The translations under genes were made by a program, and so were the position numbers. The notes under the pieces are model-generated. The model made no database searches. It was not told where the DNA came from and saw nothing but the letters and a program-made list of their open reading frames with translations. Below are positions 761-56,911 of a DNA stretch of 64,000 nt, piece by piece (position 1 is the first letter of the stretch; the number at the start of each line of letters is the position of its first letter). This DNA is from Deltaproteobacteria bacterium (GTDB lineage Bacteria > Desulfobacterota > Binatia > UBA9968): assembly GCA_016180805.1 (NCBI GenBank), contig JACPAM010000109.1, positions 734 to 64,733 on the forward strand. Direction: 5' to 3'.

Positions 761-763
761 AGG

Positions 764-1972: not shown

Positions 1973-1980
1973 TCAACTTC

Positions 1981-2014
1981 CCTCTCCCGTCGCGGGAGAG
2001 GGCGAGGGTGAGGG
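1981..2014 (+). repeat. REP-like GC-rich palindromic element (CCTCTCCCG-tcg-CGGGAGAGG followed by GCGAGGGTGAGGG), copy 1
   Basis: Perfect 9-bp inverted repeat seen directly. Near-identical element at 55411-55463. Abuts the stop that truncates the integrase remnant. Confidence 0.6.
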
Positions 2015-2196
2015 CAAATTCCATGCGCACCACCACGAACGACTCCCTGTACGTAGCCAACGTTTTTGAACAAGACCTCGTGGTACAGAAACAAAAGAGG
2101 CCGGATCTCACTTACAGGAACTCGAGAAAGAAGGTTTCTTCGCCGAAATGGCGAAAAAATATCCGACCAAGGGATAAGCCCTCCCAGTGATAGTGG

Positions 2197-4338: not shown

Positions 4339-4349
4339 GGCCTTTCCTC

Positions 4350-6509: not shown

Positions 6510-6574
6510 GTTGCGCTTGCGGCCCCTCCATCAGCTACGTTCAGCGGTCATTTCTGAAATCAAGAGCACAAGGG

Positions 6575-7615: not shown

Positions 7616-7801
7616 GGCTCCTCCTTTGCCCTTTCCAACTGTTTGCATTGAGATGCCTTTTTTGGACAGAGAGTATCCGACAAGGTGCTTTTGTGTCAAC
7701 TTCGGCACGGCTTGCGGACAGAGCTAGACATTTTCTCCGCCTTGGGGTAATGGGGGATTAAACTAACGGAGTATAGGAACTGGAATGAGAGGTCTAGAAA
7801 G

Positions 7802-8447
7802 ATGGTGAACGACCAAGTGATGCGGTTGTACCCTGTGCCGGGCAAGATCGTGAAGGAATGGATCATCCCGGCCAGGGAATACTCAGCCTTCACCATGCGC
7901 CGGGGGCAAACGTTGCGCTTCGTCGACATGGAGGGCAAACAGGTGCCGGACCTGGTTTGCTTTAACGAGCATGATCTGACCGAGCACATCAACATGGGCA
8001 ACAGCCTCCTTCTCAACAAGCGGCGCGAGCTGAGACAGGGAGACGTGCTCTACTCGGTTATTTGTAATCCAATGATGACGATCGTGGGTTACTCCAACGA
8101 AGAAAGCTACGCCTACGGTCCCATGTGCAGCGAGGAACTAAATCGCATCCGCTACGGGGTGCCGGGCACGCGCAACTGCCGGGACAACTTCGCCATGGCG
8201 CTGGCTCCGTGGGGCTTCAACCAGCGGCAAATTCCCAACGCCTTTGTTCCGTTTATGCGAGTGGAGGTACGGGACCATGGAGATCAAAGAGCCGACCAGT
8301 TGTTCGGGCGACTTCTACGATCTCAGAGCCGAAATGGACTTGCTGGTGGCGGTCTCCAACTGCCCGCAGGAACGCAATCCATGCAATGGATTTAACCCCA
8401 CTGCGACGGGTATTATCATCTATGAGAGCAGTATGGGCGGTAGGTAG
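7802..8447 (+). pseudogene. DUF1989 / urea-carboxylase-associated family protein, frameshifted (+1 shift near 8270-8276 in a G-run)
   Basis: The N-terminal 150 aa (frame of 7802) and the C-terminal portion TMEIKEPTSCSGDFYDLRAEMDLLVAVSNCPQERNPCNGFNP (frame of 8244) both match DUF1989, but lie in different frames. Confidence 0.6.
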
Positions 8448-8552
8448 GGGCCGATCCTGATTCCTCGTAGGGTTCGTCCCGGTTAGTGTGCTCCCGAACG
8501 AGAAAAAAATCTTCAGTCCTTGACACTTCAAGATGCTGGGATTCCGTTGATG

Positions 8553-10223: not shown

Positions 10224-10237
10224 GCTTGAAGCCTCCT

Positions 10238-11296
10238 TCATTTGCCGGGAACCGCGCCGCCCCAGAGCTCTTTCAGGAAGCCGCTCTTTTCTAAGTTCTC
10301 GACGAAGCTGTTATCAAAGAGCTCCTCGGCCTTTTTCCTGATGTTTGTGCCCGCCTCGCGCGCAACTTGCACTTCCTCCTCCATTCCGTTTGCCGGTATG
10401 ATCATCCTCCGGTTGATGATGGCCCTGGCAAAGGTATCGTACGCGGATTGCAGCGCCTCGGGGTCATCGAGCTTGAAGACTCGGGCAATGGAGGACTTGG
10501 CCTTGTCCGGATTCTTTTCCACGAAGTAGATCGCCTCGGCCATCGCCGCAACAAATTTCTGCACCAGCCCAGGTCGCTCCTTTAAAGTTTTTGAGTTCGT
10601 GTGCACGGAACTCGAAATAAACGGAATGGCTAGATCGTTTAGATTGTAAACCAAATTAAAGCCATCCTTCTTGCCGCGCACGTCCAGAGGAGGCCCAACC
10701 GGAGTAGCTTGGATGACGTCCATGACCAATGCCTGATATTTCTCGGGCTGGCTGGCTCCGATGGAGCGGATCTTCACCTCCTCCTCAGTCAAATTGAACT
10801 TTTTCAGAAGCACCTTTGACAGCCGGTGATCCAAAGCGCCCGGCAGCGACACCCCGATGGTCTTGCCTTTCAGATCCGCGATCTTCTGGATGTCCTTGCG
10901 GGCCAAGAGAACAAAAGGGACCCCTATCTGCAGTGACGCCACGATCTTGGCATCTATCCCCGTGGCCATGCCGGCGATTGTGGCAGCAGCAGAGCAGTAC
11001 AGGAACTGGACCTGATCGGAGGATAGAGCTGGAAGCGAGCTTGTAGTGCCCCGGAGAGCGGCATGGGTGACCTTAAGCCCGTATTTGTCAAACAAGCCGT
11101 TGTCCAAGGCAGTGTAGAAGTGGACGTAACCCCCGCTCGTTGCGCAGGTAGCCGCGGTCACTGACACAGGTATCTCGCCCGGTTTGGCCAGGTAGGGATT
11201 GGCCTCGACCCCACGAGACACCAGCACACTGCCGGTAACCACCAAGGCAACTCCGAGTCCGAACCGCAATTTCTTACACGAATTGGCTCGCTTCAT
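10238..11296 (-). CDS. ABC transporter substrate-binding protein, NMT1/THI5 (SsuA/TauA-like) family, secreted
   Basis: Start set to ATG 11296 (MKRANSCKKLRFGLGVALVV), which has an upstream GGAGAGGGAGGG SD and a signal peptide. Co-operonic with the TPP enzyme. Confidence 0.7.
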   Translation of the reverse strand: MKRANSCKKLRFGLGVALVVTGSVLVSRGVEANPYLAKPGEIPVSVTAATCATSGGYVHFYTALDNGLFDKYGLKVTHAALRGTTSSLPALSSDQVQFLYCSAAATIAGMATGIDAKIVASLQIGVPFVLLARKDIQKIADLKGKTIGVSLPGALDHRLSKVLLKKFNLTEEEVKIRSIGASQPEKYQALVMDVIQATPVGPPLDVRGKKDGFNLVYNLNDLAIPFISSSVHTNSKTLKERPGLVQKFVAAMAEAIYFVEKNPDKAKSSIARVFKLDDPEALQSAYDTFARAIINRRMIIPANGMEEEVQVAREAGTNIRKKAEELFDNSFVENLEKSGFLKELWGGAVPGK

Positions 11297-11431
11297 CGTT
11301 TCTCCCTCCCTCTCCAATAAATAATACCGCCGCCTGGGTCGTTGTTGGGTGGAGAGTATCCAGTCACCTCCTTGTATGTCAAACTGAGGCGAGCCCAAAC
11401 GAAGTGCTGCTACCACCGGATCGCCTTGGCG

Positions 11432-12511
11432 CTACTTCTGCCGCGGGTCTACGAGTGACGCATCGGGCAACTTAAGCTCGCCCCGGCGAAGCAGTTTGAC
11501 GGCTTGCACGAGGCTTCGAGCTGCGTTGCGTACCTCTTCGTGGAAATCCTTCTCTCGGTCCAAGTCGTCGTGGCTTGTCGCATAAGGCTCATAGTATCCG
11601 ATGTAGCTCCCCACCAGTGCGCTCTGGCCGGCGGGGATGAGCCCGATGTCGGTCAGCCAGTCGGTGAGGATCCGGCGCAGATTTTCGACCCCGGCCGCAT
11701 CGCCGTGCACGATTACAGAGAACACCCGGCCTGCCAGATGCTTCGGATAGTCCCAACCCTTGAGCTCCAGATCCTTTGCGCGCTGGGGGTTTTTGCCGCC
11801 GGTCGAGGTCGGATCCGGATTGCCACCGTCCGCGCAAACCAGGCGGTCAATCATGAGCTTCAACGAGCTCGGCGCCTGGTACCAGTTGACCGGGCACACG
11901 ATCATGACGCCGTGGGCCGCCACCCAGCGCGGGTAAATCTCCGCCATCCAGTCGCCGACCTGGCCCATCGCGTGGTTCGGATAACAGGAGCACGGCCAGT
12001 TGCACAGCGGCATCGCGGTCGACACGCAAGCCTTGCACGGGTAGATAATGCGCCCGTACTCCGAGGTGAGGCGACTTAGGTCGAGCAGCTCGACCTCGAA
12101 ACCCCTTTCAGCCGCGATTACCTTCTGAGCCATCGAGACAAGTCTGAAAGTCTTCGACATCTCGCCTGGACAGCTCTGGTCGCTCCGGGAGGAGCCGTTG
12201 ATTAGCAGGATGCGCGATGAAGACTTGCGGTTTTTTTGCTGCCTTTCGGCTTGTTGAATCGCCCTTCGAGTCTCCAGCCATTCCATCGGGAGCCGGAAGT
12301 TGGGGTCGGCGAACCCGGATCCGGCTGCCCGAGTACGGGGGCTCTTGCGGTACCTGTCATACCCCTCCCACGCCTTTTCAATGATCCTCTCGATCTCCTC
12401 TTGCAGCTCCCCGAAGGCGGGATCATAAAAGCGGCTCCGGACCCGCCGCTGAAATTCCTCTCTGGTAAGTTGTACACCTGGCATGCCCTTTCGGACTTTC
12501 GGCTTCACCAT
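11432..12511 (-). CDS. flavodoxin-like / NADPH-dependent FMN reductase family protein with ~100-aa N-terminal extension and Cys cluster
   Basis: Core RILLINGSSR... flavodoxin-fold signature. Cys cluster YPCKACVSTAMPLCNWPCSC. Confidence 0.55.
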   Translation of the reverse strand: MVKPKVRKGMPGVQLTREEFQRRVRSRFYDPAFGELQEEIERIIEKAWEGYDRYRKSPRTRAAGSGFADPNFRLPMEWLETRRAIQQAERQQKNRKSSSRILLINGSSRSDQSCPGEMSKTFRLVSMAQKVIAAERGFEVELLDLSRLTSEYGRIIYPCKACVSTAMPLCNWPCSCYPNHAMGQVGDWMAEIYPRWVAAHGVMIVCPVNWYQAPSSLKLMIDRLVCADGGNPDPTSTGGKNPQRAKDLELKGWDYPKHLAGRVFSVIVHGDAAGVENLRRILTDWLTDIGLIPAGQSALVGSYIGYYEPYATSHDDLDREKDFHEEVRNAARSLVQAVKLLRRGELKLPDASLVDPRQK

Positions 12512-12523
12512 GATGAACCTCCT

Positions 12524-13249
12524 CTACGGCATCGCTTCCAACAACTTGCCATACCCGTTGACCGGCTGCCTTACGTGGAGCCGCTTCTGGATCGCCCACA
12601 CGCGGGCGGGCACCGGATGAATAACCGGCACCCCGAGGTCCTGCTCCAGAGGCGCGATGATATCCAGCGTGCGCCAGCCGGAGCCGAGCATGTAGATCGC
12701 GTCGGCTTCGGAATGGCGCAGAAAGACTTTTCGCGTGTGAGCGTAAACCTCTTGGGAGGAAAGCCGACCCACATCTTCGAAGGCCACCGCGATCCCCTCC
12801 ATGCCCAGGACATCGAGACCGCCTTCTTTGAAATAGCGGGAAAAAGTCTCGTTGATTTTGCCGGTGAAGTAGGTCACGCCGAGTATTCTCTTCACGTTTA
12901 AGGCCCGCATCGCTTCCACCTGCGTCATCCCGGCCGTGACAACGGGAATTTTAAACTTTTTCTCCCATTCCCCGACGACGCTTTTTTCTCCCTCGAACCC
13001 CTGGACCATGAAGGGAGGCGCCCCCTCCGGGTGAATGAGATCCGGTTTGAGCTGTGCCAGCTCGGCCACTTTGGCCTCATAGGCCACCATCGCCGCCTGA
13101 AACTCGTCCTCCGTGCCACGCTGGATCCCGAGGAACAAAGGAATCACTCCGATCCCCTCGGGAAGCAAGCGGATGAATTCCTCCAGCGAACCTGGTCTCA
13201 TCGTGGGCTTGATGACCCCGACGACACCCCGCCAACTCGTATACGCCAT
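12524..13249 (-). CDS. Asp/Glu/hydantoin racemase superfamily protein (maleate isomerase / arylmalonate decarboxylase-like)
   Basis: Start at ATG 13249 (MAYTSWRGVVGVIKPT) with an AGGAGAAAG SD. Size and profile typical of the family. Confidence 0.55.
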   Translation of the reverse strand: MAYTSWRGVVGVIKPTMRPGSLEEFIRLLPEGIGVIPLFLGIQRGTEDEFQAAMVAYEAKVAELAQLKPDLIHPEGAPPFMVQGFEGEKSVVGEWEKKFKIPVVTAGMTQVEAMRALNVKRILGVTYFTGKINETFSRYFKEGGLDVLGMEGIAVAFEDVGRLSSQEVYAHTRKVFLRHSEADAIYMLGSGWRTLDIIAPLEQDLGVPVIHPVPARVWAIQKRLHVRQPVNGYGKLLEAMP

Positions 13250-13322
13250 GGCTTTCTCCTTTCCGATCCTTGCTATGCCCGCCGAAAAGTTATACGCGAT
13301 TAAGAGCGAGACGATCAAGATA

Positions 13323-15542
13323 ATGCGGCTCTTGGTTGTATCCAACAGGCTCCCCGTTACTGGGGTCGAACGGAACGGCAAGCTCCAGTTCCAAAAAAGC
13401 GTCGGCGGCCTTGTCTCCGGTCTCAGCGCCTATCTGGACTCTCTGAAGGGTTCCCCCCTGGCCAACTCCGAATATGTCTGGGTGGGTTGGCCGGGCATCA
13501 CGGTCAGCGACAGAGAAAAAGAGCGGCTGAAGGCGGATTTCGTCACCCGGCTTCAGGCCTATCCCGTGTTCCTCTCCGAGCGGGACATGGGAGCTTTTTA
13601 CCTCGGCTTTTGCAACAAGACCATCTGGCCGCTGTTCCACTATTTCCCGGACCGAGCCACGTTCGACGAAGACTACTGGAAGTCCTACGTCAGAGTCAAT
13701 GAGACCTTCCGTAACGCCGTGTTGGAGATCATCCAGCCCGAAGACGTCGTGTGGGTTCATGACTACCACCTCATGCTGCTCCCCAAGCTTCTCAGGGAGG
13801 CCATGCCTGATATCCTCACCGGGTTCTTTCTCCACATCCCCTTCCCCTCCTTTGAGCTTTTTCGTTTGCTGGCAAGGAAATGGTCGAGGGAGATTCTCGA
13901 AGGCCTGTTAGGCGCCAACCTTATCGGCTTTCACACCCACGAATACACGCAGTACTTCTTGCGCTGCGTATTGCGCATCCTGGGCCACGAGCACGACATG
14001 GGGCGCTTCGTTATCAACCAGCGCTTCGTCAAAGCCGAGACCTTCCCGATGGGCATCGACTTCCAGAGATTTCATCACACGGCCCTCAGTCCCGAGATTC
14101 AGAAGGAGACGGCGCAGCTCAAGAAGTCGCTCGGTGACTTCAACGTGATCCTCTCCATCGACCGGCTGGACTATACCAAGGGAGTCGTCCAGCGCTTGCG
14201 GGGCTACGAAGCCTTCCTGCGACAAAACCCGCACTGGCACGGAAGGGTCATTCTCGCGCTCGTTGTCGTCCCGTCCCGCATCGGCGTCGAGCATTACCAG
14301 CAGATGAAGCGGCAGATCGACGAGCTGGTCGGGAAAATCAACGGCACGTTCGGCAACCTGAAATGGACGCCCATTCTATATCAATACAAGTTTGTGCCGA
14401 TTGAGCCCTTGATTGCCCTCTACAGGGCTTGCGATGTCGCCCTGGTCACCCCATTGCGCGACGGCATGAACCTCATTGCCAAGGAGTATGTCGCTTCGAG
14501 AACCGACCAAACCGGGGTTTTGATCCTGAGCGAGATGGCGGGCGCCGCCAAGGAGTTGCGGGAAGCCATCCTCATCAACCCCACGGACATAGAGGAGATC
14601 GCCGAAGCGCTCAAGGAAGCCCTGGAGATGGAGCGGGAGGAACAGATCCGGCGAAACCAGGCGATGCAGGCCCGGCTCAGGCGCTGCGACGTGGTTCGCT
14701 GGGCTGATGACTTCATTCGCGACCTCCTCTCCCTCAGGGAGGAACGCAGAGGGTGGGAAGCCAAAGCCTCCAGCCCTTCGCTGCAGGAGCCCTTGCTCCA
14801 CAGCGCGCGAACAGCCGAGCGACGCCTTCTCTTTCTCGACTACGACGGCACTCTCGCCGAGTTCGAGGGCGACCCGCAAAAGGCGAAACCCAGCGCGCAG
14901 CTTCTCTCCATCCTTCAGAGCCTTGCCAGCGACTTGAGAAACGATGTCGTCCTCATCAGCGGGCGGGATAAGGCAACGCTGCATCGATGGTTCGGCACGC
15001 TTTCAATCGCGCTGGTCGCGGAGCACGGAGCGTGGATAAAGGAACAAAAAGACATGCAATGGCGGATGCTCGCGCCCTCCGCCAACGACTGGAAGCCGAA
15101 GATTTTGCCGCTGCTCGAATTCTACGCGGACCGGCTTCCCGGCTCGTGGGTGGAACAGAAGGACTGCTCCCTCGTCTGGCATTACCGCAAGGCGGATCCC
15201 GAGCAGGGCTCCGCGTGGGCCAAGGAGCTCGTCGACGAGCTGGTGAACTTCACCGCAAATATCGACGTGCATGTGCTTCAGGGAAGCAAAGTAGTCGAGG
15301 TAAGGCAGGCCGGAGTCAACAAGGGCACCGCCGGCATGCACTTTTTGACGCAGAAGCGGCCCGATTTCGTGCTGGCAATAGGCGACGACTCGACCGACGA
15401 GGACCTATTCCGCATCCTTCCACAAACCGCCTACTCGATCCGGGTAGGGATGAGCCAGTCTCACGCCAAGTTCACTCTCCCCGATCACCGGGAGGTTCTC
15501 CGCCTTCTCGACGCATTGGCACAGGCCGGCCACAACCTCTAG
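13323..15542 (+). CDS. otsAB: bifunctional trehalose-6-phosphate synthase / trehalose-6-phosphate phosphatase (OtsA-OtsB fusion)
   Basis: N-terminal GT20 domain (HDYHLMLLP, ...GFFLHIPFP) and C-terminal HAD phosphatase (LFLDYDGTL, GDDSTDEDLF). Start at ATG 13323 (MRLLVVSNRLPV), avoiding overlap with the divergent gene. Confidence 0.9.
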   Translation: MRLLVVSNRLPVTGVERNGKLQFQKSVGGLVSGLSAYLDSLKGSPLANSEYVWVGWPGITVSDREKERLKADFVTRLQAYPVFLSERDMGAFYLGFCNKTIWPLFHYFPDRATFDEDYWKSYVRVNETFRNAVLEIIQPEDVVWVHDYHLMLLPKLLREAMPDILTGFFLHIPFPSFELFRLLARKWSREILEGLLGANLIGFHTHEYTQYFLRCVLRILGHEHDMGRFVINQRFVKAETFPMGIDFQRFHHTALSPEIQKETAQLKKSLGDFNVILSIDRLDYTKGVVQRLRGYEAFLRQNPHWHGRVILALVVVPSRIGVEHYQQMKRQIDELVGKINGTFGNLKWTPILYQYKFVPIEPLIALYRACDVALVTPLRDGMNLIAKEYVASRTDQTGVLILSEMAGAAKELREAILINPTDIEEIAEALKEALEMEREEQIRRNQAMQARLRRCDVVRWADDFIRDLLSLREERRGWEAKASSPSLQEPLLHSARTAERRLLFLDYDGTLAEFEGDPQKAKPSAQLLSILQSLASDLRNDVVLISGRDKATLHRWFGTLSIALVAEHGAWIKEQKDMQWRMLAPSANDWKPKILPLLEFYADRLPGSWVEQKDCSLVWHYRKADPEQGSAWAKELVDELVNFTANIDVHVLQGSKVVEVRQAGVNKGTAGMHFLTQKRPDFVLAIGDDSTDEDLFRILPQTAYSIRVGMSQSHAKFTLPDHREVLRLLDALAQAGHNL

Positions 15543-17057: not shown

Positions 17058-18533
17058 TCAGACCGATGCCAATATCTTTTGAAATTTCGCTTTGAGCTTT
17101 GCGCGCAGCTCCGCACTGACTTCGACCACCCGCGGAAACTTACCCCGCAGTTTTCGGTCGTAGGGAATGCACGCGTCGACGAGAATCCGGTTATTGAAAT
17201 TTCCCGGCAGGAACATCGGATCCCGCCCCGAAGACCAGGCTTTCTGAATGATATCGATATCGGCGATGGGATCGAAGCGCGTGCACATTGCCCACAGCAC
17301 CTGCTCCAGGTCGGAGCAGTCGATATCCTCATCCACCACGACCGTCCATTTCCCATTGTAGGCCCCCGCCGAGCACGAAGAAGCCACATGCAGAACATTG
17401 CGCGAGTGCCCGGGATAGCGCTGGCGGATCTGAATCACGGTAAAGCGCGTGGCTGGGCCGGCCTCGTGGTTCCACACGCCGAGGATCTCCGGCAGACCAC
17501 AGGCATCGAGCGCTTTCCAAATTTCCGCAGCGCCCGCGATCCCCTTGAGCAGTCCCGTTTCGTCCACCGGCTTGTGCTGGGGCGCGCAGGTGAGGATCGG
17601 ATCGTCCCGGTAGAGAACGGTCTTAACGTCGATGTAGGGGCGGGGAACGACGTCATCAGAAATATAGCCCATCCACTCGCCGAACGGCCCCTCCGCCTTG
17701 ACGTTTCCCGGAACGACTTCGCCTTCGACGGCGATCTCGGCATCTGCCGGTATCGGAAAGCCAGTATAGGGCCCCTTGACGACCTCGATGGGCTCCCCCC
17801 GAATGCCGCCGGCAAACTCCAGCTCGGAGATCCCTTCGGGAAGCGGGCTTGCCGAAAGCATATACAGCAGCGGATCCTGGCCGCACACGACCACCACTTT
17901 CATGCTCTGGCCGCGCTCGAAGTATTTGTCGCGATGAATCCTTCCGTGCTTCCCCTCGGTGATCTGACAGCCGATAGTTTTTCCGTCGTAAACCTGGCAC
18001 CGGTAAGCTCCCAAGTTAAACCAGTCGGCGTCGGGGTCTTTGGTGATCACGCAGTCGGCCGTGCCGATAAAGCGTGACGTATCGAGCTCATGGTGGACGG
18101 GGACTGGAAACTTCAGCACGTCCACATCGTCGCCTTCCAAGACATGGTCGAGAACGGGTCCTTTGCTGACAAACCTGGGCTTCATGAGCTTCAGGCTTTG
18201 GATCCGCGCGTGGTAGGCCTTTACGATGTCGCACTTGCGCTCGTATTCGAGTGGTAAGCCCAGCGTCAGGGCGATCCGCTTCATCGTCGAAAATTGCCCG
18301 TAGAGAGTCCTGAACCCTTTCGGGTAGCCGGGCACCTCATCGAAAAGGATGGCCGGGGCCGTCCCCTTGCTCCGCTCGGTCAAGAGTTGCGTGATGCTAC
18401 CCATCTCCCGGTCCCAGTGAGCCCCGTTGATCCTCAGAAGCTCGCCCATCCGGTCTACCCGGTCGACCCAATCCCTGAGGCCACGATACCTCACCTGCCC
18501 TTCGACTTCGCGAACTTTCTCTGCGCGCGCCAT
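17058..18533 (-). CDS. UbiD-family (prFMN-dependent) decarboxylase, paralog 1
   Basis: 491 aa. UbiD-family profile similar to the two other paralogs at 32655 and 55463. Confidence 0.85.
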   Translation of the reverse strand: MARAEKVREVEGQVRYRGLRDWVDRVDRMGELLRINGAHWDREMGSITQLLTERSKGTAPAILFDEVPGYPKGFRTLYGQFSTMKRIALTLGLPLEYERKCDIVKAYHARIQSLKLMKPRFVSKGPVLDHVLEGDDVDVLKFPVPVHHELDTSRFIGTADCVITKDPDADWFNLGAYRCQVYDGKTIGCQITEGKHGRIHRDKYFERGQSMKVVVVCGQDPLLYMLSASPLPEGISELEFAGGIRGEPIEVVKGPYTGFPIPADAEIAVEGEVVPGNVKAEGPFGEWMGYISDDVVPRPYIDVKTVLYRDDPILTCAPQHKPVDETGLLKGIAGAAEIWKALDACGLPEILGVWNHEAGPATRFTVIQIRQRYPGHSRNVLHVASSCSAGAYNGKWTVVVDEDIDCSDLEQVLWAMCTRFDPIADIDIIQKAWSSGRDPMFLPGNFNNRILVDACIPYDRKLRGKFPRVVEVSAELRAKLKAKFQKILASV

Positions 18534-28104: not shown

Positions 28105-29550
28105 CTAAGGATGCCGCGCGAGCAAAACCGACATGCCATCGCTCAGTTGGGTCATCTGTCCGAGGAACAAACTCGCCCGGGCGAAAAGAAAACAGTTCCG
28201 AGCTTCCCCCTCGGTCAATTCCCGGTGCGCATGGGGAAGATAAGCCAGGGCCGAAGCGATATGCCCCTGGGTCGGGGCAAAACCAGGAACCCCTTTTCGC
28301 TTCATGAAGTCCTGCATCTCAGAGCGCGCCATCTTACCGCCGGAAACCAAGACTGCAGCCAGCATCTTGTAGTTGCGCTCCGGGATATCGCCGCCGTTGG
28401 CCGGCACGGTGATCTCGGGATTGTGCAGCTCGGTCACGAATCTGTCCACAGAGGCTGCGGTTAAATCCAACCGCTCCATCGGCTCCAGCACGATCGCCTT
28501 GAGCTGCTTATCCAACGCCGCCCCTGACCGCACCGGGTGACGCCCCACGCTGGCGAGGTTGATTACCGGGCTTTTGCCATCGTCCCGCCCGATCCAAACC
28601 GCGGCCGCAGCCAGCACGTCCTCGAGCACCGGCATGCCCTTCTCCAAATGGTAGAGAAATTTCATACCGAGTTTCGGGAGCGAGGCGCCGCCGACAACGA
28701 CGACGTTCTCAAAGACACCGCTGTGCACCAGCGCGGCTCCGGTCACGAGAGCCGGAATCGGGGCGGCGCAGAAGTTTTTGATGTCCATACCGGAGGCCAG
28801 CACGCAACCAGCAAACTCGGCCACGGCCTTGGCGAGATTGCCGCCGCCGCGCTGGTAGCGATCTCCGACCGCCTCCTCCGAACAGCTCAAGACGTAGTCG
28901 ACTTTCTGTTCCGAGAGCGCAGGATGGCGCATCAGGAGCTCGCGAACCGCCAAGGCCGCGGAAACCTTGACACAGAGATTCTCTAGCAAAACGTTCGCCG
29001 TAAGCGAGCCATCCTCATGATGCGCGTGTCTGATCCAGCCGATCGGTTGAGAATCGGTGCCGGTAAAGAGCGCGATCCCGTCCCCCTTGGCTATATCGGC
29101 GCGGAGCCGGTCGCGCGTGACGAGCGAGGGCGAGACTGTAGCCAAGGGCTGGAACAGCGGCACCGCCCGCAAACGCGGGCTGATATCCTGCCAAAAACCT
29201 TCAAATAAAGAAACGTGTTTGAAGACATCAGCGAGGGCCACAAGCCCGACGAAAGATCGCTCATCGATGAAATCGCCGAAGGCCCGACGATCGTTCGCGA
29301 GCGGTGATGGCCGCCCATACCACGGCCTTTCTACCTCGTAAAGGCTGGAGATGGGCGTCTGGCCAAGAAACACCCGGTTCGGCAAGTAAGCCTCGGCCTG
29401 TTCATGGGATTGGAGGCTCTTTTGAAGCTCATCAAGCCTCGAAGGGCGGTCTTGAATCTCCCGCCACGGCTTGGAGCCATAGCGGACGAGCCCGGGGGCG
29501 TGGATCAACACGCTGCTTGCGCCGTTAACAACGGGGGTGAAGCTCGCCAT
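28105..29550 (-). CDS. grdC: glycine/sarcosine/betaine reductase complex component C beta-subunit-like protein (GrdC)
   Basis: 481 aa. Blocks VLIHAPG, QRGGGNLAKAVAEFAG, KNFCAAP, NYKMLAAV, APTQGHI and GxxSLFLGQMT align with GrdC as recalled from memory. Confidence 0.65.
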   Translation of the reverse strand: MASFTPVVNGASSVLIHAPGLVRYGSKPWREIQDRPSRLDELQKSLQSHEQAEAYLPNRVFLGQTPISSLYEVERPWYGRPSPLANDRRAFGDFIDERSFVGLVALADVFKHVSLFEGFWQDISPRLRAVPLFQPLATVSPSLVTRDRLRADIAKGDGIALFTGTDSQPIGWIRHAHHEDGSLTANVLLENLCVKVSAALAVRELLMRHPALSEQKVDYVLSCSEEAVGDRYQRGGGNLAKAVAEFAGCVLASGMDIKNFCAAPIPALVTGAALVHSGVFENVVVVGGASLPKLGMKFLYHLEKGMPVLEDVLAAAAVWIGRDDGKSPVINLASVGRHPVRSGAALDKQLKAIVLEPMERLDLTAASVDRFVTELHNPEITVPANGGDIPERNYKMLAAVLVSGGKMARSEMQDFMKRKGVPGFAPTQGHIASALAYLPHAHRELTEGEARNCFLFARASLFLGQMTQLSDGMSVLLARHP

Positions 29551-31105: not shown

Positions 31106-32437
31106 TCACACGGTCGCGGAAATGTTCGGATAGAATAACGTCGGCTGTTTAACCTCCGCATGGATGGCCTTGAGCGCGGTCTCCACGATCTCGCGTCTCA
31201 GCCGTGCATCGACCTCGGACGGCAGACTGGGATCACCGCACGGATGCGGAATGCTCACGGCTTTGACGATCCGGCTCGCTCCGACCTGCTCCGCGATCGG
31301 ATACATAGCGCTGATAATCGCCACCGGCAATCCCGCTCGATCAATTTCCTTGCTAATCACAGCACCGCTGCGACTGCACGTCCCTCAGGTCGCTACCAAT
31401 AGGACCCCATCGATCTGCTCCTTCTTGAGGTCGGCGGCGATCTCCTGCCCGATGCGCTTCATGACCGAGGGCGATCCCTGGTTCCCTGGAACGACGTAGT
31501 AGCTGTGGTAGAGGCGGAATCTTCCATCGGATTCCGACGCGCGCAACGCGTCGAGAGGCAATCCATAATGGGGGTTCTGATTCATGAACGCGACGTTGTA
31601 ACCGCCGTGAACTGCCTCCCACTTTCCCGGCTCCAAGACCTTCAATTCCGAAATATTGTACTTCTGCCAAAACGTGTTGCGGTAGGTCTTGAAACGGTCC
31701 GGATTGCCCCACGGCACCACCCCGCTAGTGGTAATCACGGCGATGGTCGCCTGCCGCTCCGGCGAAAGCGGCGGCGCCGGCACCGCGCGATCCCAGATTT
31801 GCACCGGAACTTCGGTCACGAAAGGCTCATTGCGGAGCCGTTTGAGAAGCATCTCGACGGCGCGCTCCACGCCGGGCCGGTCGGTCCGCTCGAGCCGCCG
31901 GATGCCCCGAGGGATATAGCCTTCTTCTCTCGCCGGTCCCAACTCCTCGCCACTCCCCAACCTGCAGGCGAATCCTGCCATCGCCATCAAAGCCTCGTTC
32001 ATCCCTGCAGCCGTCTCTCTAGTGGGCAGCAAATAGACGTTGAGATCGTGGTACCCGCGATAGGCGTCCACCGCGGGATTTTCCTCGTGCATCGCAGTCA
32101 CGCATGGAATTCCCAAACTCTCCGCCACGCCGTGACAAACCTCCACACAGCCGACCCCGTAGCGTCCAGAGTTGAAGGCGGGACCAGCAACGACCACCTG
32201 GGGCTTGCGGGAGCCGATTTCTTTGAGAATGGCGGCCTTGGCCTCTTCAGGGTGTTCGTGAAAGTAGTTGTCGCCGAAATAGATCGTCGCGACGACCTTG
32301 CCCTTATCACCGAGCTGTGCCTGTAAGCCACGCGCCGCTCCCGTCGCGCCCTCGGCTGTCCCCACGGGCACTCCCGCCTTATCCTCGCCCCCCAGACCGG
32401 CGAAGAATTGATTGATGACGTGGACAACAGTGACCAT
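31106..32437 (-). CDS. grdB: glycine/sarcosine/betaine reductase selenoprotein B (GrdB/GrdF/GrdH family), in-frame TGA = selenocysteine at 31385-31387
   Basis: ATG 32437 with an AAGGAGG SD. MVTVVHVINQFFAGLGGEDKA...AGPAFNSGRYG... runs to ...DGVLLVAT-TGA(U)-GTCSRSGAVISKEIDRAGLPVAIISAMYPIAEQVGASRIVKAVSIPHPCGDPSL... This reproduces the conserved ...T-U-GTC..GA motif and C-terminal tail of GrdB. The ORF track splits it into 31385..32437 and 31106..31360. Confidence 0.85.
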
Positions 32438-32654: not shown

Positions 32655-34070
32655 ATGGCCAAGGATATGCGAACTTTTATCGATCAGGTAGTCCGAGAAC
32701 GTCCGGGGGAAATTTTGGTCGTCAATGAAGAGGTAGACCCAAAGTTTGGGATAACGGGAATAGCTTCTAAGCTGGCTAGCCGGAATCGTTTCCCCGCGGT
32801 CTTGTGCCGCAAAGTCCGAGGGTCGCAGTTGCCCGTCATTATTAATCTCACTGCCAGCTATGAGCGGTTGGCTTTGGCTCTCGGGACGACAATGGCGAGC
32901 ATGGTTCCAGATTACGCCAACCGTCCTTCAGCCAAGATCCAACCGAAGATCGTCGAAAGATCCAAGGCGCCGGTGAAGGAGATCATTCTCAAGGGAAAGG
33001 AAGCCAGGATGTCAGTCTTGCCGGTTCCCACTCACAACGAGCTTGACGCCGGCCCCTATATCACCGGAGGTACTTTGATCTGCAAAGATCCCGATTCCGG
33101 TGCGTTGAATACCGGCATGTACCGGATACAGGTGCAAAAAGAGCAGCAGTTGGGAATTTGGATGTGGGACACCCATCATGGTGCTCATATCCGGCGGAGG
33201 TATGAAGAGCTGGGAAGGGAGATGGAGGTGGCCATTGCTATTGGCCACCATCCCGCTTACATCATGGCCGCTGTTTCTACGCTCCCGGGGATAGGCGGAG
33301 AATTGGAAGAGGCCGGAGCCCTTCTCGGCGAGCCTCTTGAAGTTGTGCCTGCTGAGTCTGTCGATCTGCCTGTCCCGGCCAGGGCAGAGATCGTCATTGA
33401 AGGCAAGTTGCCTCCGGGAGAACGAGCCTTCGAAGGGCCGTTTGCTGAATGGCCGGGGACCTACGTGGCGGAAGGAGATAAGCCTTTTATTAGAGTCACT
33501 GCTATCACGATGCGTAAGGATGCCATCTACTATGACGTTTTCAGTTCCAATCGAGAGCACACGGTTTTGGGCAGCCTTCCACGAATGGGGGTTATTTACC
33601 GCACTGTCAAACAGTATGCGCCAGGAGTGAGGAACGTAAATATTCCCAGCCATGGACGCATGTACTGCTACATCTCGATAAAGAAAGAATCGGAAATGGA
33701 CGTAAAAAGGGCCGCCATGGCAGCCCTCAATGTCGAGCCCTTCAATCTGAAAACAGTCGTGGTCGTAGATGATGACATCGATGTCTTCAATGATGCCGAG
33801 GTCCTTTGGGCTATTGGAACCCGCTGCCATATGGAGAGAGATCTGACGCTGGTTCCTCGATTGGCTGGTCCTGGAGGGCTGAATCCCGTGGGCTATGAGT
33901 TTCATCCTGACGGCAGCAAGACTCCCGTTATGATCTCAGCCCTTATTGTGGATGCCACGAAGCCGGCACCGCCGACCCCTTACCCGCCGAGAGCCAGAGT
34001 GCCGCAAGAAGTTCTTGATCGTATCGATCTCGGTAAGCTGCTTAAGGAATTCAAGGGATTTGAGTGTTAA
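32655..34070 (+). CDS. UbiD-family (prFMN-dependent) decarboxylase, paralog 2
   Basis: 471 aa. Divergent from grdB with a 217-bp intergenic region. Confidence 0.85.
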   Translation: MAKDMRTFIDQVVRERPGEILVVNEEVDPKFGITGIASKLASRNRFPAVLCRKVRGSQLPVIINLTASYERLALALGTTMASMVPDYANRPSAKIQPKIVERSKAPVKEIILKGKEARMSVLPVPTHNELDAGPYITGGTLICKDPDSGALNTGMYRIQVQKEQQLGIWMWDTHHGAHIRRRYEELGREMEVAIAIGHHPAYIMAAVSTLPGIGGELEEAGALLGEPLEVVPAESVDLPVPARAEIVIEGKLPPGERAFEGPFAEWPGTYVAEGDKPFIRVTAITMRKDAIYYDVFSSNREHTVLGSLPRMGVIYRTVKQYAPGVRNVNIPSHGRMYCYISIKKESEMDVKRAAMAALNVEPFNLKTVVVVDDDIDVFNDAEVLWAIGTRCHMERDLTLVPRLAGPGGLNPVGYEFHPDGSKTPVMISALIVDATKPAPPTPYPPRARVPQEVLDRIDLGKLLKEFKGFEC

Positions 34071-35718: not shown

Positions 35719-35961
35719 CCAAACAGATCCTTCTGGTCCCTACTCTATCTAAGGATCTCCTTGAGTTTCCCAATCAAGCTTGGATCGTGGATGCCCATCT
35801 GGATTAAAGGCCATACCCACGGCTTCTTCTGGCAGGTGGCTGAGGAAACCGACGCCTGGGTACAGGCTTGGATCGAGACCACCGGAGTTAGAAAGATTCT
35901 CTGATCGCCTAGCCGTTGCGCTCTTTTTCCTCACCTGAATTGCTGAACGAACTGGATCGAC

Positions 35962-37161
35962 TTATAAATCATTGGGCGCGAGTTGCAGACGGGCATCCTC
36001 CAAAAGAAACACTTTCAATCCGTCGGCAAATACCTGCACGCTGGCCCGAATATAGGGATGAGGATTCTCGCCAATTTCTTGCACAAACACCTCATAAACC
36101 ACGTGGCGCGATGCCGGATCGACCTGGCCACGGCATTTGAATCGCTGCGTATGCCCGGATACGGGTTCAAAGTGATGGCCATCACGCTCCAGCGAAAAGC
36201 CCATGTATAGCAGATAGAACGCCATAGCCTGCAGGCAGCCTTCAAGCATAAACGTCCCCGGCATCACGGGATCATTTTTAAAATGCACCTTAAAAAACCA
36301 TGTATTCGGATCTACATCCGCCTCCGCTCGAAGGTATCCACGTCCCCACGGCCCGCCTTTGAGATCAATGTTGCCAACCCGATCGAGAAAAAGGAGTCTA
36401 TCACCAGGCAGACGCGCTGGACGACGGTGGTCAGAAACTTCAAATTGTGGCCCGAAACAATGAGATAAACGACCTTTTGATAATGCGACTAACTGTTCCT
36501 TGTCGAAAGCCCGACGCTCGCAAGAAACGACGGGGGCGAGAAGAGGACCATCGAGCGCGATCCGATCTCTGTTCTTCAGAGGGTCCCAAAGGATGCCGCG
36601 GGCGCCAACAAGCTCCCCATGAGTGAAAAAACCTCCATTGCTATCGCCCTTTGATCTCAACTTCCCGCCGACAAAACATTGACACAGAAAGAACACAATT
36701 AGGGTTCCTTCTTGATTGACCAAACGGTTTAAACTGATTTTATGTCTTAGCTTATCACCAATCTTGGGAAGTCCGCCGTAAAACGTCACCTTAGAGCCTA
36801 AGAGGCGAAACCTCTTTGAACCGTTGTCGAGAAAGTCGATCCCCAACTTGCTGAGCAACAAAAGGATGCCCTGGCAGCATTCTGAATAAATACCCGGTGG
36901 AATGTATCCATCTTGTAGGTACCATTTGTCCTCCGTCAGATCCGTCTCGGATATGACAAATGAGCCTTCATAAACGCCGGGCCTTGCCTTTAGCTCTACG
37001 ATTCGATCTAACAACAAAAGAGGGGGACTTGGCAGTCGAATTCGTATAAGTCGATCATCCAAGATAGAGAATGCACTTCCAAAGAGGGTCGAAACTTTTC
37101 CTTCAGCATGAAACAACAAATCTTCAAACGAAAACGAAGCGGGCGCCGTATTCACTGTCAC
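35962..37161 (-). CDS. standalone tandem hot-dog (FabA/FabZ-like double dehydratase) protein, PUFA/polyketide-synthase DH-like
   Basis: 399 aa. Second half carries the HFKNDPVMPGTFMLEGCLQAMAFYL FabA/FabZ active-site motif, and the first half is a second hotdog fold. The region is visibly AT-richer (~48-50% GC) than its surroundings. Confidence 0.6.
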   Translation of the reverse strand: MTVNTAPASFSFEDLLFHAEGKVSTLFGSAFSILDDRLIRIRLPSPPLLLLDRIVELKARPGVYEGSFVISETDLTEDKWYLQDGYIPPGIYSECCQGILLLLSKLGIDFLDNGSKRFRLLGSKVTFYGGLPKIGDKLRHKISLNRLVNQEGTLIVFFLCQCFVGGKLRSKGDSNGGFFTHGELVGARGILWDPLKNRDRIALDGPLLAPVVSCERRAFDKEQLVALSKGRLSHCFGPQFEVSDHRRPARLPGDRLLFLDRVGNIDLKGGPWGRGYLRAEADVDPNTWFFKVHFKNDPVMPGTFMLEGCLQAMAFYLLYMGFSLERDGHHFEPVSGHTQRFKCRGQVDPASRHVVYEVFVQEIGENPHPYIRASVQVFADGLKVFLLEDARLQLAPNDL

Positions 37162-37377
37162 CTCTTCAGATCAAACCCAGAGGAAGCGCGCCATCTGAAG
37201 GTGTGCGTGGAATAGGTGAAACCGCCTGCGCGCGTCGATCCACGCCTGGAGCTCTCCAGGTATGCGGTGCTTGCTCTTCGCCATCGTTCCGTTTGTTCCT
37301 GACGAGCTAACACGTTGCGGTTCAGACACGCGCCGCTTGCGGCGTGTCGTCCTGCAAGCGGCGGTTAGACGCCTCTT

Positions 37378-39198: not shown

Positions 39199-39460
39199 GC
39201 TAATCAAGTTCGGGCACCAATGGTCCACTCCGGATCCGAAGAGAGAGTGCATGTTCAGCGCAGCCCAACCAGTGAGTCTACTGACCGGCATAGTACGGGT
39301 CCCTGAAACAAGAATTCGAAGCGGATTCTGTTGCCTTTGCAACCAGTTGTCAAGCTTTTTGTCGAAACCACTCCACCCCCACTCTTTGCCCGCACGTTGG
39401 GTCTTGCAGTACAGGCCAGATCGGATTAACGTCTGGGAAATTGGCGAGGAGGATACATCT

Positions 39461-39946
39461 ATGAGCAGCAAGCAGTGGGACAGTCCACCTGAGATGCAGA
39501 TTGACCCGAAGAAGGCATATAAGGCGACGATCGAGACCAAGAAAGGCAATATCGAACTGGAACTCTATCCGCAGCACGCGCCGAAAACGGTCAACAACTT
39601 CGTGTTCTTAGCCCGCGAGGGGTACTACGACGGCGTGTCGTTCCACAGGGTGATCAGCGACTTCATGATCCAGGGAGGCGATCCGACGGGGACGGGTCGA
39701 GGCGGTCCTGGCTACAAATTTGAAGATGAGTTAAAGGGCAATCCGCTGACCCATCAGACGGGAGTGATCTCGATGGCCAACGCCGGGCCGAACACCAACG
39801 GGAGCCAGTTCTTCATCACGCACTCGCCGCAGCCCCACTTAAACGGGAAGCACACGGTGTTCGGGAAGGTTGTGAAGGGTCAGGAGGTCGTGGATGCAGT
39901 GCGGCAGGGCGATAAGATGGACCGCGTGAAAGTTGACGAGGGTTAG
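39461..39946 (+). CDS. ppiB: peptidyl-prolyl cis-trans isomerase, cyclophilin type
   Basis: Start ATG 39461 (MSSKQWD) with a GGCGAGGAGG SD. Motifs [25 protein letters not shown] and QFFIT. Confidence 0.85.
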
Positions 39947-41169: not shown

Positions 41170-41973
41170 CTATGTCTCAGTGTTTTCAGCGTTTTCCTTC
41201 CAAAAGATAGTATTCTCGGGCGTTAGCACCTCACTTTCGCCCCGAAAATCACCCGCATAAGCCTCTCTTTCTTCCCGCAATACGTACGTTCCGCCGATCT
41301 CCGCGACTTTGCGATGTATGGCTTTGATCCCAAGCTCGTTCTTAACGTTGTCAATAAAAGCCGAACTGCCAACGGCGATAGCCTCTGACCAGCGATCGTC
41401 TCGCACCGCCATCCCGCGCATTAGCGCTTCCTCAACCCATTGGCGGTGTGCTTGCTGAAAATCCGCTACTTCCCCAAAGCCACATAAGGCGCTTAGGCCC
41501 CGAAGATCGATAATCCCATAGCGCTCGGGTGGCTTTTGAATCTCGCGGTAGCCACTCTGTGCCCATTCGCTTGGATGCTGAACCACACGTGCCCGTACCA
41601 TGTTCAAGTCAATATAGACAAGACAGCGATGCAGGTGCTCGTCGGCCTCGATAGCGGTGGCATGGTAACGATCCTCCCAGAACGCTCCCTGCCGCCCTTT
41701 GCGCTGGTTGTATTCTTGCGCGGTGCGTCCGGCAATTAGCTGCATGCTCTGCGGAATCACCTCTCGGCCCGTATCCCTTACCAGGAGATGCACGTGGTTG
41801 GACGTCACCATATAGTTAAGCACCGAGAGGCCGAATCGCTTTTTGGCCTTAAAGACCCAATGCAAGTAACGGCGTCGATCCCGCGCAAACTTCAAGAGGA
41901 ATGTCTTGTGGTGGCAGCGGTGAGTGATGTGCCAAATGTAGCCGGGCAGAAAATGGCGGCTGGCGCGGGGCAT
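41170..41973 (-). mobile_element. REP-associated tyrosine transposase (RAYT, IS200-like TnpA_REP)
   Basis: 267 aa. HuH motif NHVHLLV, RKGRQGAFWEDRYHA..., YIDLNMVRARVV..PSEWAQSGY with a catalytic Tyr. Flanked by the inverted 10-mers GGGTCGGACC (near 41146) and GGTCCGACCC (near 42083). Confidence 0.8.
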
Positions 41974-55410: not shown

Positions 55411-55463
55411 CTCTCACCCTCTCCCTACCCTCTCCCTGTGAGGGAGAGGGCAAGGGTGAGGGT
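55411..55463 (+). repeat. REP-like GC-rich palindromic element, copy 2 (CCCTCTCCC-tgtg-AGGGAGAGGG + CAAGGGTGAGGG), immediately 3-prime of UbiD paralog 3
   Basis: Same hairpin and GGGTGAGGG tail as the 1981-2014 element, in the same orientation. Abuts the TAA stop of the 55463..56911 gene. Confidence 0.6.
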
Positions 55464-56911
55464 TAGCACCAGTACGTGGTCCGATCGATCGGGATGTGCT
55501 GCAATATCTCCCCGGGGATATAGTCCTCCAGCTTGATCCTCTCCATCGCGTCATCCGGGCACTTGGAGACCGGCGAGAACGGCCGGTCCAGAGGCCGGGT
55601 CGCATCGATGATCATTCCTGAGGTCTTGATCTCATCGACCAACGATGGATCCAAAAAGTTGCCCCGAAACAAGGGCTGGAGAACCGAGACCTGCTGGTGG
55701 GGCTGCACCCGAGTGGCCAACGCCCAGAGGATGTCCGTCGGGTTGTAGACATCGATGTCGTCGTCAAAAACGAAAACGTTCTTGGTGTGATCGAACGTCA
55801 GCGCTGCGGCCGCGGCCCGCCCGGGGTCCCCCTCGGACATCTTCTTCATCGAGATGAAAACGTTGTAGTGGGCGTGGCGTCCCATCTTGCACACCGCCGT
55901 GACTCCCGGAATAGCCTCACGGCAGCGGCGCAGGTAGGCCCCCTCGCGCGGCAGGTCCATCCACGGCTTGTCCCCCTCCGGCGTGATGACCGATTGGTAC
56001 ATCCCGCCCCTGCGGTAATTGATAGCCCGAACTTCATAATGGACGCACGTGGTATAGCGCTGGGGGCCAAGATAGCCCGGCGCCTCACCGAAAGGCCCCT
56101 CGACGATACGCTTCCCTGGAATCAAGGCACCCTCGATGACGATCTCGGCGTCCGCGGGGATGAGCAGATCCTCACCCCAGGTCTCGGAGGGAGTCAGCCG
56201 AAGCGGCTCCTGGAGATAACCGCCGATGATGTCGAACTCGCTGACTTCGAAAGGGCCGCTGTAGCAAGCGCCCATGTGATACGCCGGATGGTGGCCCAGG
56301 ACAGTGGCCACCGGACATTCCAGGTTGTTGTCTTCATGATCGCGGAAGATCTTCCACAAGTGGCGCGGGGAGGCATAGAGCGCGGTCTTGTTCTTCGACT
56401 TCACCTCCATCCGGTGATAGGAGCAGTTATAGATACCGCTCTTCCGATCCCGCGTAATCGTCGACAGGACGATGTAGGGGCCGCCATCCATGTAGTGGTG
56501 GCGCATGATCGGAAGCTCGTAGAGATCGACTTCGGGCCCCTTTTTGACAACCTCTTTGACCGGCGCGCTCTTCTTGTCCACGATAACAGGCGGAATGCGG
56601 TGCTCCTCCCGCTCCAGACAGACCTCGGCCATCTGGGTCCGGTTCATTTCTCGCGGCACCCCCAAGGCGATCTGGGTCTTCCGCTGGGAGATCTCGCAGT
56701 TCATGACGAGCTTGAACTCGCTGCTGACCCTTCCGTGCAGGTTGCGAGGCCGGTCGAAGATCAATATCGGAAACTTTTTCATCGCGCCCAGATGCTTGAT
56801 TACGGCCGTGACGTCGTACTGGGCGGGATCTACTTCTTTGGTGACGTGGACCACCTCGTTGGGAATCTCTCGCTGGCATTCCTCTAAAAACGTCCTCAGG
56901 CTCTTCGGCAT
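55463..56911 (-). CDS. UbiD-family (prFMN-dependent) decarboxylase, paralog 3
   Basis: 482 aa, with a UbiD profile. Confidence 0.85.
   Translation of the reverse strand: MPKSLRTFLEECQREIPNEVVHVTKEVDPAQYDVTAVIKHLGAMKKFPILIFDRPRNLHGRVSSEFKLVMNCEISQRKTQIALGVPREMNRTQMAEVCLEREEHRIPPVIVDKKSAPVKEVVKKGPEVDLYELPIMRHHYMDGGPYIVLSTITRDRKSGIYNCSYHRMEVKSKNKTALYASPRHLWKIFRDHEDNNLECPVATVLGHHPAYHMGACYSGPFEVSEFDIIGGYLQEPLRLTPSETWGEDLLIPADAEIVIEGALIPGKRIVEGPFGEAPGYLGPQRYTTCVHYEVRAINYRRGGMYQSVITPEGDKPWMDLPREGAYLRRCREAIPGVTAVCKMGRHAHYNVFISMKKMSEGDPGRAAAAALTFDHTKNVFVFDDDIDVYNPTDILWALATRVQPHQQVSVLQPLFRGNFLDPSLVDEIKTSGMIIDATRPLDRPFSPVSKCPDDAMERIKLEDYIPGEILQHIPIDRTTYWC

Follow-up and report, generated by a model that had tools for sequence, protein, structure and literature searches.

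In the FabA homodimer, the active site is formed by His70 of one subunit and Asp84 of the other (Leesong et al. 1996, as cited in PMC9667614). The FabA-like dehydratase (DH) domains of polyunsaturated fatty acid (PUFA) synthases comprise a long pseudo-domain and a core domain that jointly form a double hot dog (PMC9667614), and the pseudo-domain (DH') is known to be catalytically incomplete (PMC9667614, PMC8436480). FabA-like DH units excised from PUFA synthases can rescue E. coli fabA(Ts) (PMC9667614), a complementation also credited to Xie et al. 2018 in a passage of PMC9113149. Here, we describe a gene encoding a DH'-DH unit as a separate protein of 397 amino acids (aa), found in a 64,000-nucleotide (nt) stretch from a Deltaproteobacteria bacterium of the Binatia (assembly GCA_016180805.1, contig JACPAM010000109.1, positions 734 to 64,733), hereafter designated as the window. 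We consider it probable that the product of this gene is a free-standing dehydratase of beta-hydroxyacyl thioesters, of the PfaC-type DH'-DH kind and perhaps with isomerase activity too, which has one composite FabA-like active site and acts in trans on an acyl carrier protein (ACP)-bound chain built by a synthase encoded elsewhere.

Domain organization and family assignment

The gene lies within the interval 35719-37377, which runs from the stop of one neighbouring gene to the stop of the other and contains a single substantial open reading frame (ORF) in the ORF list (35962..37161, minus strand, 399 aa, GTG start). Residues are numbered on this ORF, with its GTG at 37161, and the corresponding numbers in the GenBank protein are lower by 2. 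Pfam assigned the protein to one family only, the FabA-like domain family PF07977 (E = 5e-47; score 159.4 bits, cutoff 23), with matches to two stretches, the better of which covers residues 251-385. Searches of NCBIfam returned FabA and FabZ models exclusively. The bifunctional FabA model PRK05174 was passed (138.5 versus a cutoff of 124) only as two stretches summed, and the fabA equivalog TIGR01749 was not (128.6 versus 238.15). The protein also departs from FabA proper in not being a single homodimeric hot dog of ~170 aa. Equivalents of FabA His70 and Asp84 are present, the acid being Glu instead of Asp.

Profile and structural comparisons confirm the extra N-terminal hot dog proposed in the initial annotation of this region. 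With HHalign, the N-terminal half was related to the C-terminal half (97.7% probability) and to E. coli FabA (96.4%), the C-terminal half itself matching E. coli FabA at 99.7%, and an AlphaFold2 (AF2) model built on a 43-sequence alignment displayed two hot-dog folds (pLDDT 94.7, pTM 0.93). The best Foldseek match in the PDB was 2cf2_C (TMq 0.71, TMt 0.81), a chain of two E. coli FabA copies arranged as a dimer (a fused FabA dimer model), and FabA monomers matched the C-terminal half (TMt 0.85-0.91). A phmmer search of PDB sequences returned FabA and FabZ structures only, those of FabA covering residues 215-394. Based on the Foldseek, HHalign and AF2 results, together with the FabA-only sequence matches, the protein is a covalently fused, asymmetric FabA pseudo-dimer made of two FabA-like hot dogs arranged head to tail.

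The similarity to the homodimeric FabA of E. coli and Pseudomonas is thus extensive: the whole model superposes on the two FabA chains of 2cf2_C, the N-terminal half is FabA-like too, and the C-terminal half is about 30% identical to FabA, with His70 kept and an acid at the Asp84 position. In contrast to FabA, the two "subunits" are fused and diverged, and the N-terminal one is devoid of the catalytic His, which leaves at most one active site.

Two other hot-dog families were considered and rejected. DH domains of the polyketide synthase (PKS) type (CurK/CurJ, PksJ and product-template domains) resemble the window protein in combining two hot dogs with one active site and in handling ACP-bound beta-hydroxyacyl chains, but their structural likeness is weak (TM 0.37-0.45, 11-14% identity with Foldseek), no PS-DH profile was matched, and the His of the window protein is located in the C-terminal fold. 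A hot-dog thioesterase or MaoC hydratase was discarded because neither Pfam nor NCBIfam gave such a profile match. In Pfam, no match at E <= 1 was obtained for PS-DH, PKS_DH_N, 4HBT, acyl-ACP thioesterase or MaoC, and the same held in NCBIfam for 4HBT, thioesterases and MaoC; the domain searches therefore did not lead to the unrelated thioesterase family against which the initial annotation had to be checked. That annotation had also regarded the didomain architecture as typical of both PUFA and polyketide synthases. The comparison with PUFA synthases stands, the protein corresponding to a PfaC/Pfa3 unit, but the one with PKS-type domains does not.

A putative composite active site

An active-site signature had been noted in the second hot dog and is indeed found there (HFKNDPVMPGTFMLEGCLQAMAFYL), with counterparts of both FabA catalytic residues in His293 and Glu307. 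In the N-terminal half, HHalign opened a 5-residue gap opposite the His-bearing pentapeptide (KVHFK in the C-terminal half, CHFIG in FabA), and aligned Glu94-x-x-Gln97 with Glu307-x-x-x-Gln311 and with FabA Asp84...Gln88. Conservation of these residues was assessed over 51 DH1-type units, namely the five orthologues described below (window copy included) and 46 other units. His293 is kept in 5/5 orthologues and 44/46 other units, and Glu94 in 5/5 and 45/46, making them the best conserved of the three key positions; position 307 is acidic (E/D) in 4/5 and 42/46 (46 of the 51 together).

Since the FabA homodimer pairs a His of one subunit with an acid of the other, a single His293-Glu94 site is the most economical reading of these alignments. 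To one complete active site, the C-terminal fold would contribute His293 and the N-terminal pseudo-domain Glu94, and the symmetry-related second site would be dead, the N-terminal fold having lost its His segment. Several observations weigh against so strict an assignment. Position 307 is still mostly acidic across units, the one deviating orthologue (P0003) combines E307G with Q311E, one helical turn apart, and a D/E-to-A mutation in the core domain abolished complementation (PMC9667614). The acid of the C-terminal domain, Glu307, may thus matter as well.

Relationship to megasynthase units

A word-indexed search identified four orthologues of the same length (90, 78, 76 and 71% identity), one of them from a Candidatus Binatia metagenome-assembled genome (MAG), the next relatives being at most 45% identical. 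Logan assemblies and NCBI MAGs were the only sources of close orthologues: identity did not exceed 43% for any relative among GTDB species representatives, nor 41% over the full length in JGI metagenomes, where, as in GTDB, the matches at 40-43% identity lie within ORFs of 2100-2900 aa. An exhaustive HMMER search extended the family to 2350 representatives, including 974 at E <= 1e-30. Among the 150 with the highest scores, 149 are multidomain proteins 780-3020 aa long, and in most the best stretch spans almost all of the ~390-aa unit (for example query 9-396).

The megasynthase sequences have the PfaC/Pfa3 layout, with a first unit bearing the motif "...GHFKNDPCMPG..." and a second one with "...AHFFQDPVQPG...", and the window protein has the first-unit motif. 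In a neighbour-joining (NJ) tree with 100 bootstraps, DH1-type and DH2-type units were split with 100% support, and the five orthologues formed a clade, also with 100% support, among the DH1-type units. As nearly all the best representatives are multidomain proteins and the clade is nested among DH1-type units, the window unit probably originated as the first DH'-DH module of a megasynthase resembling PUFA synthases, and would later have become an independent gene. In the tree, the clade lies closest, at a weak support of 48%, to the N-terminal unit of P0211. This protein of 1481 aa matches FabA twice and PS-DH weakly, and also has a PlsC-type acyltransferase (layout DH'-DH-DH'-DH-PS-DH-acyltransferase); a C-terminal layout of this kind was described for the terrestrial myxobacterial Pfa3 (PMC8436480).

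The window protein shares 35-45% identity with the first DH'-DH unit of PfaC/Pfa3 over nearly its whole ~390-aa length, a His-less pseudo-domain N-terminal to a FabA-like core, the motifs PPLLLxDR...WYL...E-x-x-Q in DH' and WFFxxHFKNDPxMPG...E-G-C-L-Q in DH, and the same double hot dog as described (PMC9667614, PMC8436480). It differs in being a separate protein instead of part of a KS-CLF-(AT)-DH-DH megasynthase, with no embedding in a KS-CLF-DH polypeptide of a pfaA-D(E) cluster and no pfa genes within the 64 kb. In addition, it lies on a long branch and carries substitutions specific to its clade, such as ECCQGILLLL in place of E(S/A)GQADLLL.

Free-standing DH'-DH copies are not unprecedented, as they occur in Paenibacillus, Shouchella and Streptomyces. 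These proteins (393-465 aa) align over the full length at 38-40% identity, and are annotated "hotdog family protein" or "beta-hydroxydecanoyl-ACP dehydratase". The Firmicute proteins (P0017-P0030) and the Streptomyces one (P0034) fall in clades separate from that of the orthologues, so that stand-alone versions arose more than once, by independent gene fissions. In contrast to the window gene, they have synthase genes for neighbours. The Shouchella homologue (414 aa) belongs to a cluster with MT, ADC, ketoreductase (KR), ACP, two ketosynthases (KS), a small ApeI-like hot dog and a phosphopantetheinyl transferase (PPTase); that of Paenibacillus to a split pfa-like cluster with KS-AT, ACPs, KR, a PfaD-like ER and KS-CLF-DH; and that of Streptomyces lies beside a PfaD-like ER and KS-AT-ACP.

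The dehydratase gene is under purifying selection. Pairwise dN/dS values (Nei-Gojobori) among the five orthologues range from 0.09 to 0.22 over dS of 0.23-2.4, the closest pair, formed by the window copy and the 90% orthologue (L118), having a dN/dS of 0.22 at a dS of 0.23.

Start, expression signals and upstream region

The ORF is free-standing, with stop codons on both sides. The ATG of the orthologues aligns with its second GTG, at 37155, giving the 397-aa product, and gene callers predicted the same length on two 99.8%-identical contigs that carry the gene (L125 and L126). These contigs were located through the neighbouring amidohydrolase, an exact look-up of the 399-aa form having matched nothing because gene callers start at the second GTG. 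The 397-aa product is identical to GenBank MBI2088381.1, named [quoted passage not shown] by PGAP; the protein is therefore already in GenBank as a FabA-type dehydratase, is correctly recognised by standard annotation, and as it stands offers nothing mechanistically unexpected. The region around the ribosome-binding site and start (Table 1) is kept in L118 and can be aligned with the ATG starts of the three other orthologues (L002, L115 and L001).

The gene lies downstream of an amidohydrolase gene on the same strand, from which it is separated by a hairpin and a truncated small ORF, and is convergent with an alpha/beta-hydrolase gene. The GC-rich hairpin, which surfaced as a member of a repeat family in the repeat search, has no T-run and was not called by the consensus terminator scan. 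It may nevertheless be a terminator of the amidohydrolase gene, judging from its sequence and position, and this would imply a separate transcript for the dehydratase. The scan found no consensus promoter or terminator on the dehydratase strand, and an Rfam scan of 34.5-39.5 kb gave sub-threshold matches only.

The truncated ORF (37171-37284, minus strand; MAKSKHRIPGELQAWIDARRRFHLFHAHLQMA followed by RFLWV and a stop) lies directly upstream of the dehydratase start and has no Pfam match. At the L118 locus, an intact counterpart gene ends at the homologous junction (…ETKENKAI and a stop, then CGCGCTTCCTCTGGGTT); from this comparison, the window appears to carry an internal deletion joining the 5' part of the small gene to post-stop sequence. 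A noncoding stretch of ~150 nt upstream of the dehydratase is common to L002 (400-540) and L115 (500-640), as exemplified by TGAGAGCTTTTGGCGGAGG, and may be a regulatory element; this motif was found neither in the window nor in L118.

Table 1. Coordinates of the dehydratase gene and its features in the window, and neighbours of three orthologues
Feature	Coordinates	Strand	Remarks
Coding sequence of the free-standing DH'-DH dehydratase	35962..37155	-	397 aa from GTG at 37155
Ribosome-binding region and start	37147..37167	-	GAAGAGGTGACAGTGAATACG; AGAGG 5 nt ahead of the second GTG
N-terminal hot dog (DH' pseudo-domain), residues about 9-190	36592..37137	-	FabA-like; AF2 strands 53-180
C-terminal FabA-like hot dog (core DH), residues about 215-396	35974..36519	-	Pfam, phmmer, HHalign, Foldseek
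Active-site motif HFKNDPVMPGTFMLEGCLQAMAFYL, residues 293-317	36211..36285	-	FabA alignment
His293	36283-36285 (codon)	-	matches FabA His70
Glu307	36241-36243 (codon)	-	matches FabA Asp84
Glu94 (N-terminal fold)	36880-36882 (codon)	-	aligns to FabA Asp84 (HHalign)
GC-rich hairpin	37319..37352	-	GACACGCCGC-AAGC-GGCGCGTGTC; ~25 nt downstream of the amidohydrolase stop codon
L001			cyclophilin gene in divergent orientation, with 80% nt identity to window 39446-39684; next, M23 peptidase and cupin
L115			convergent gene of no assigned family
L002 (Binatia, 78% orthologue)			139-aa hot-dog gene 125 bp downstream of dehydratase, then KS gene

Base composition and possible origin of the gene

The dehydratase gene is compositionally foreign in its genome. 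Its GC content is 49.3%, with 49-51% over 36000-37250 in 500-bp windows, and its GC content at third codon positions (GC3, 0.49) is the lowest of the 48 window ORFs (mean 0.709, sd 0.064; z about -3.4). It ranks last among the 48 in synonymous-codon log-likelihood as well, when scored against the pooled codon usage of the remaining genes (z = -2.95), so that the codon-usage check revealed no host-like usage. The region had initially been presented as an AT-rich island between flanks of ~63% GC. The low GC was confirmed; the flanks are less rich than stated, at 55.0% over the left 2 kb and 60.1% over the right 2 kb (58.5% for the whole window), values of 63-66% being reached only at about 38.3-39.2 kb, and no mobility signature was detected at its borders. 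The term "island" is thus justified in composition only. The upstream intergenic segment 37162-37377 has 60% GC, the AT-rich part being limited to the gene and its 3' spacer, and the genes on the left-hand side (UbiD, GST, alpha/beta hydrolase) are mildly GC-poor too. The UbiD ORF 32655-34070 is the second most codon-atypical of the window (z = -1.6).

Among the orthologues, GC3 is 0.40 in L002, 0.50 in L118, 0.575 in L115 and 0.74 in L001, and the window copy clusters with the low-GC copies in the NJ tree, its closest relatives having a GC3 of 0.40-0.50. The foreign composition fits horizontal acquisition, or allele replacement from a lower-GC relative. As for presence at the site, the amidohydrolase of a related locus (L128) is 77% identical to that of the window, and this locus is without a dehydratase gene; beyond the amidohydrolase, the synteny comparison found no further genes common to L128 and the window. 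Homologues in the plasmid collection occur only inside megasynthases, on megaplasmids or chromids and at 43% identity or less, so that there is no sign of a plasmid vehicle.

Several findings argue against a recent transfer. There is no tRNA in the 64-kb window, a border search found no flanking repeat pair but chance-level repeats only, and no mobility gene adjoins the dehydratase, the nearest transposase being 4 kb off. In L001, the dehydratase gene adjoins the same cyclophilin-type peptidyl-prolyl isomerase (PPIase) gene, in the same divergent arrangement. Lastly, the gene sits 3-9 GC points under its flanks in every orthologue locus, so that some of its low GC may be a property of the gene itself.

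The transposase, an IS200-like Y1 enzyme of 267 aa (41170-41973, minus strand; PF01797, E = 1e-10), has a slightly low GC3 of 0.62 and is flanked by genes for a TctC-family receptor and a xanthine-dehydrogenase-type protein.

Genomic context and candidate partners

The initial description of the gene as free-standing and without synthase context proved accurate. Pfam scans of 40 further window ORFs (of ~48 substantial ones) detected no KS, AT or ACP domain of the PKS or fatty acid synthase (FAS) type and no PfaD. The sole KS-like match, a weak one to ACP_syn_III/DUF5940, falls in the ORF 28105-29550, beside glycine-reductase-type genes. Pfam identified, in addition to the latter, genes for three UbiD-family proteins, GST, hydrolases, cyclophilin, TctC/NMT1 binding proteins, xanthine-dehydrogenase-type subunits, ABC transporters, hydantoinases and the IS200-like transposase.

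The predicted dehydratase, possibly also a trans-2/cis-3 isomerase, would act in trans on ACP-bound acyl chains, with the synthase encoded elsewhere in the genome; its partners could be discrete type II FAS- or PKS-like proteins, or a pfa-like system. Such an action is made feasible by the complementation of fabA(Ts) by excised units, by the occurrence of natural free-standing homologues in type II-like and split pfa-like clusters, and by the location of the 78% orthologue just upstream of a small hot dog and a KS (L002, Table 1). On the other side, the missing ACP, KS or AT partner within 64 kb leaves trans action without local support, and the arrangement of L002 is a single case, on a 2.8-kb contig, that is not conserved: neighbours differ from one orthologue locus to the next, and the clusters marked by orthologues of the L002 139-aa hot dog (L120-L124) have no DH'-DH gene.

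These clusters, found on "Deltaproteobacteria" or Binatia MAG contigs (L120, positions 1-14986, and also L121-L124), form a conserved type II FAS-like assemblage with lipid-A-modification-like genes. The genes are arranged in the order PMT/ArnT-like, AMP-binding, DUF1571, PPTase, 139-aa hot dog, KS, KR and ACP, followed by an ApeI-like DH, KR, KS, SDR, GT2, a formyltransferase, an epimerase/dehydratase and a deacetylase; those past GT2 include ArnA-like genes. In L123, the cluster lies beside the capsule export genes Wza, Wzz and Wzi.

Alternative functions

The same evidence has to be weighed against other roles for the gene. A housekeeping enzyme replacing FabA, which would work with the ACP of type II FAS (FAS II) and produce unsaturated fatty acids independently of oxygen through cis-3-enoyl intermediates, could account for the four of five distinct orthologue contexts that are devoid of a biosynthetic cluster, for the PRK05174 score and the PGAP name, and for the rescue of E. 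coli fabA(Ts) by excised PUFA-synthase DH units (PMC9667614). It is nevertheless an unlikely role for this gene, which is the most codon-atypical of the window, unusual for a core lipid gene, and whose product stays far below the TIGR01749 cutoff. No FabB-like KS is encoded nearby, all the free-standing orthologues fall in one 50%-identity cluster among the 150 best representatives, and the gene is missing from the locus of a relative whose amidohydrolase is 77% identical. We are likewise doubtful that the protein works in trans as a dehydratase dedicated to the type II FAS-like glycolipid/Arn-like cluster, its gene being located apart from that cluster in this genome. The adjacency in L002 is what suggests it, the 139-aa hot-dog gene being a marker of that cluster in L120-L124, and the Shouchella homologue keeps comparable company (two KS, a small ApeI-like hot dog, PPTase and ACP). 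But the adjacency was seen once, on a short contig, that position is taken by a PPTase in the five other copies of the cluster, all of which lack a DH'-DH gene, and the cluster already possesses two hot-dog dehydratases.

A functionless orphan, that is a megasynthase fragment gained by horizontal transfer and not yet decayed, would agree with the atypical composition, the lack of partner genes in the window, the neighbours that vary among loci, and the truncated small ORF directly upstream, a sign of local decay. It seems very unlikely for a gene with an intact reading frame, a conserved ribosome-binding site and start, its catalytic His and Glu kept, a free-standing length that is constant at 71-90% identity, and dN/dS values that stay at 0.09-0.22 in five lineages, even for the closest pair. 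Finally, it is highly improbable that the protein serves the catabolic pathways to which its neighbours point (UbiD decarboxylase, GST, alpha/beta hydrolases, amidohydrolase) as a hydratase of acyl-CoA or other non-ACP thioesters, or as a thioesterase. The surrounding genes are indeed catabolic or hydrolytic, and hot-dog folds include CoA-dependent hydratases and thioesterases (PMC516016), but the profile searches returned FabA and FabZ models to the exclusion of MaoC, 4HBT and thioesterase ones, none of these neighbours is conserved beside the orthologues, and all close homologues are modules of ACP-dependent synthases. A free-standing PfaC-type dehydratase acting in trans is the explanation that we favour.

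Other genes of the window

In its gene content, the window has the appearance of a region rich in catabolic genes. The three UbiD-family paralogues lie at 17058-18533 (minus strand), 32655-34070 (plus) and 55463-56911 (minus), and the window also encodes many solute-binding proteins of the NMT1/TctC type, hydantoinase A/B and two sets of molybdopterin dehydrogenases. A GRDB-family gene (31106-32437, minus strand), encoding selenoprotein B of glycine/sarcosine/betaine reductase, is split by an in-frame TGA at 31385-31387 (VAT-TGA-GTC). This context fits a U-x-x-C selenocysteine motif, and the resulting ORFs of 350 and 84 aa are probably one selenoprotein of ~443 aa. An 809-aa ORF at 13113-15542 (plus strand) fuses trehalose-6-phosphate synthase (GT20) and trehalose-phosphatase domains, its annotated start overlapping the preceding arylmalonate-decarboxylase-like ORF on the opposite strand.

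Concluding remarks

The window gene offers a natural case of a catalytic module that would have left a PUFA-synthase-like megasynthase and persisted as a soluble protein of 397 aa under purifying selection, and the separate Firmicute and Streptomyces clades show that such fissions occurred several times. Because searches of the PDB by sequence and with Foldseek returned FabA, FabZ and PKS-type DH structures only, and no PfaC-type DH'-DH unit, this small free-standing version could be a convenient subject for studying the structure and mechanism by which a pseudo-domain completes an active site. A more speculative and rather improbable proposal is that the domesticated megasynthase module is a dehydratase/isomerase installing cis double bonds for FAS II or for a type II FAS-like glycolipid pathway. 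If the protein does feed type II fatty acid synthesis, it would be another solution to the anaerobic synthesis of unsaturated fatty acids, and a module domesticated in this way would represent an unrecognised, FabA-independent anaerobic route to unsaturated acyl chains in the Binatia/"Deltaproteobacteria" lineage.

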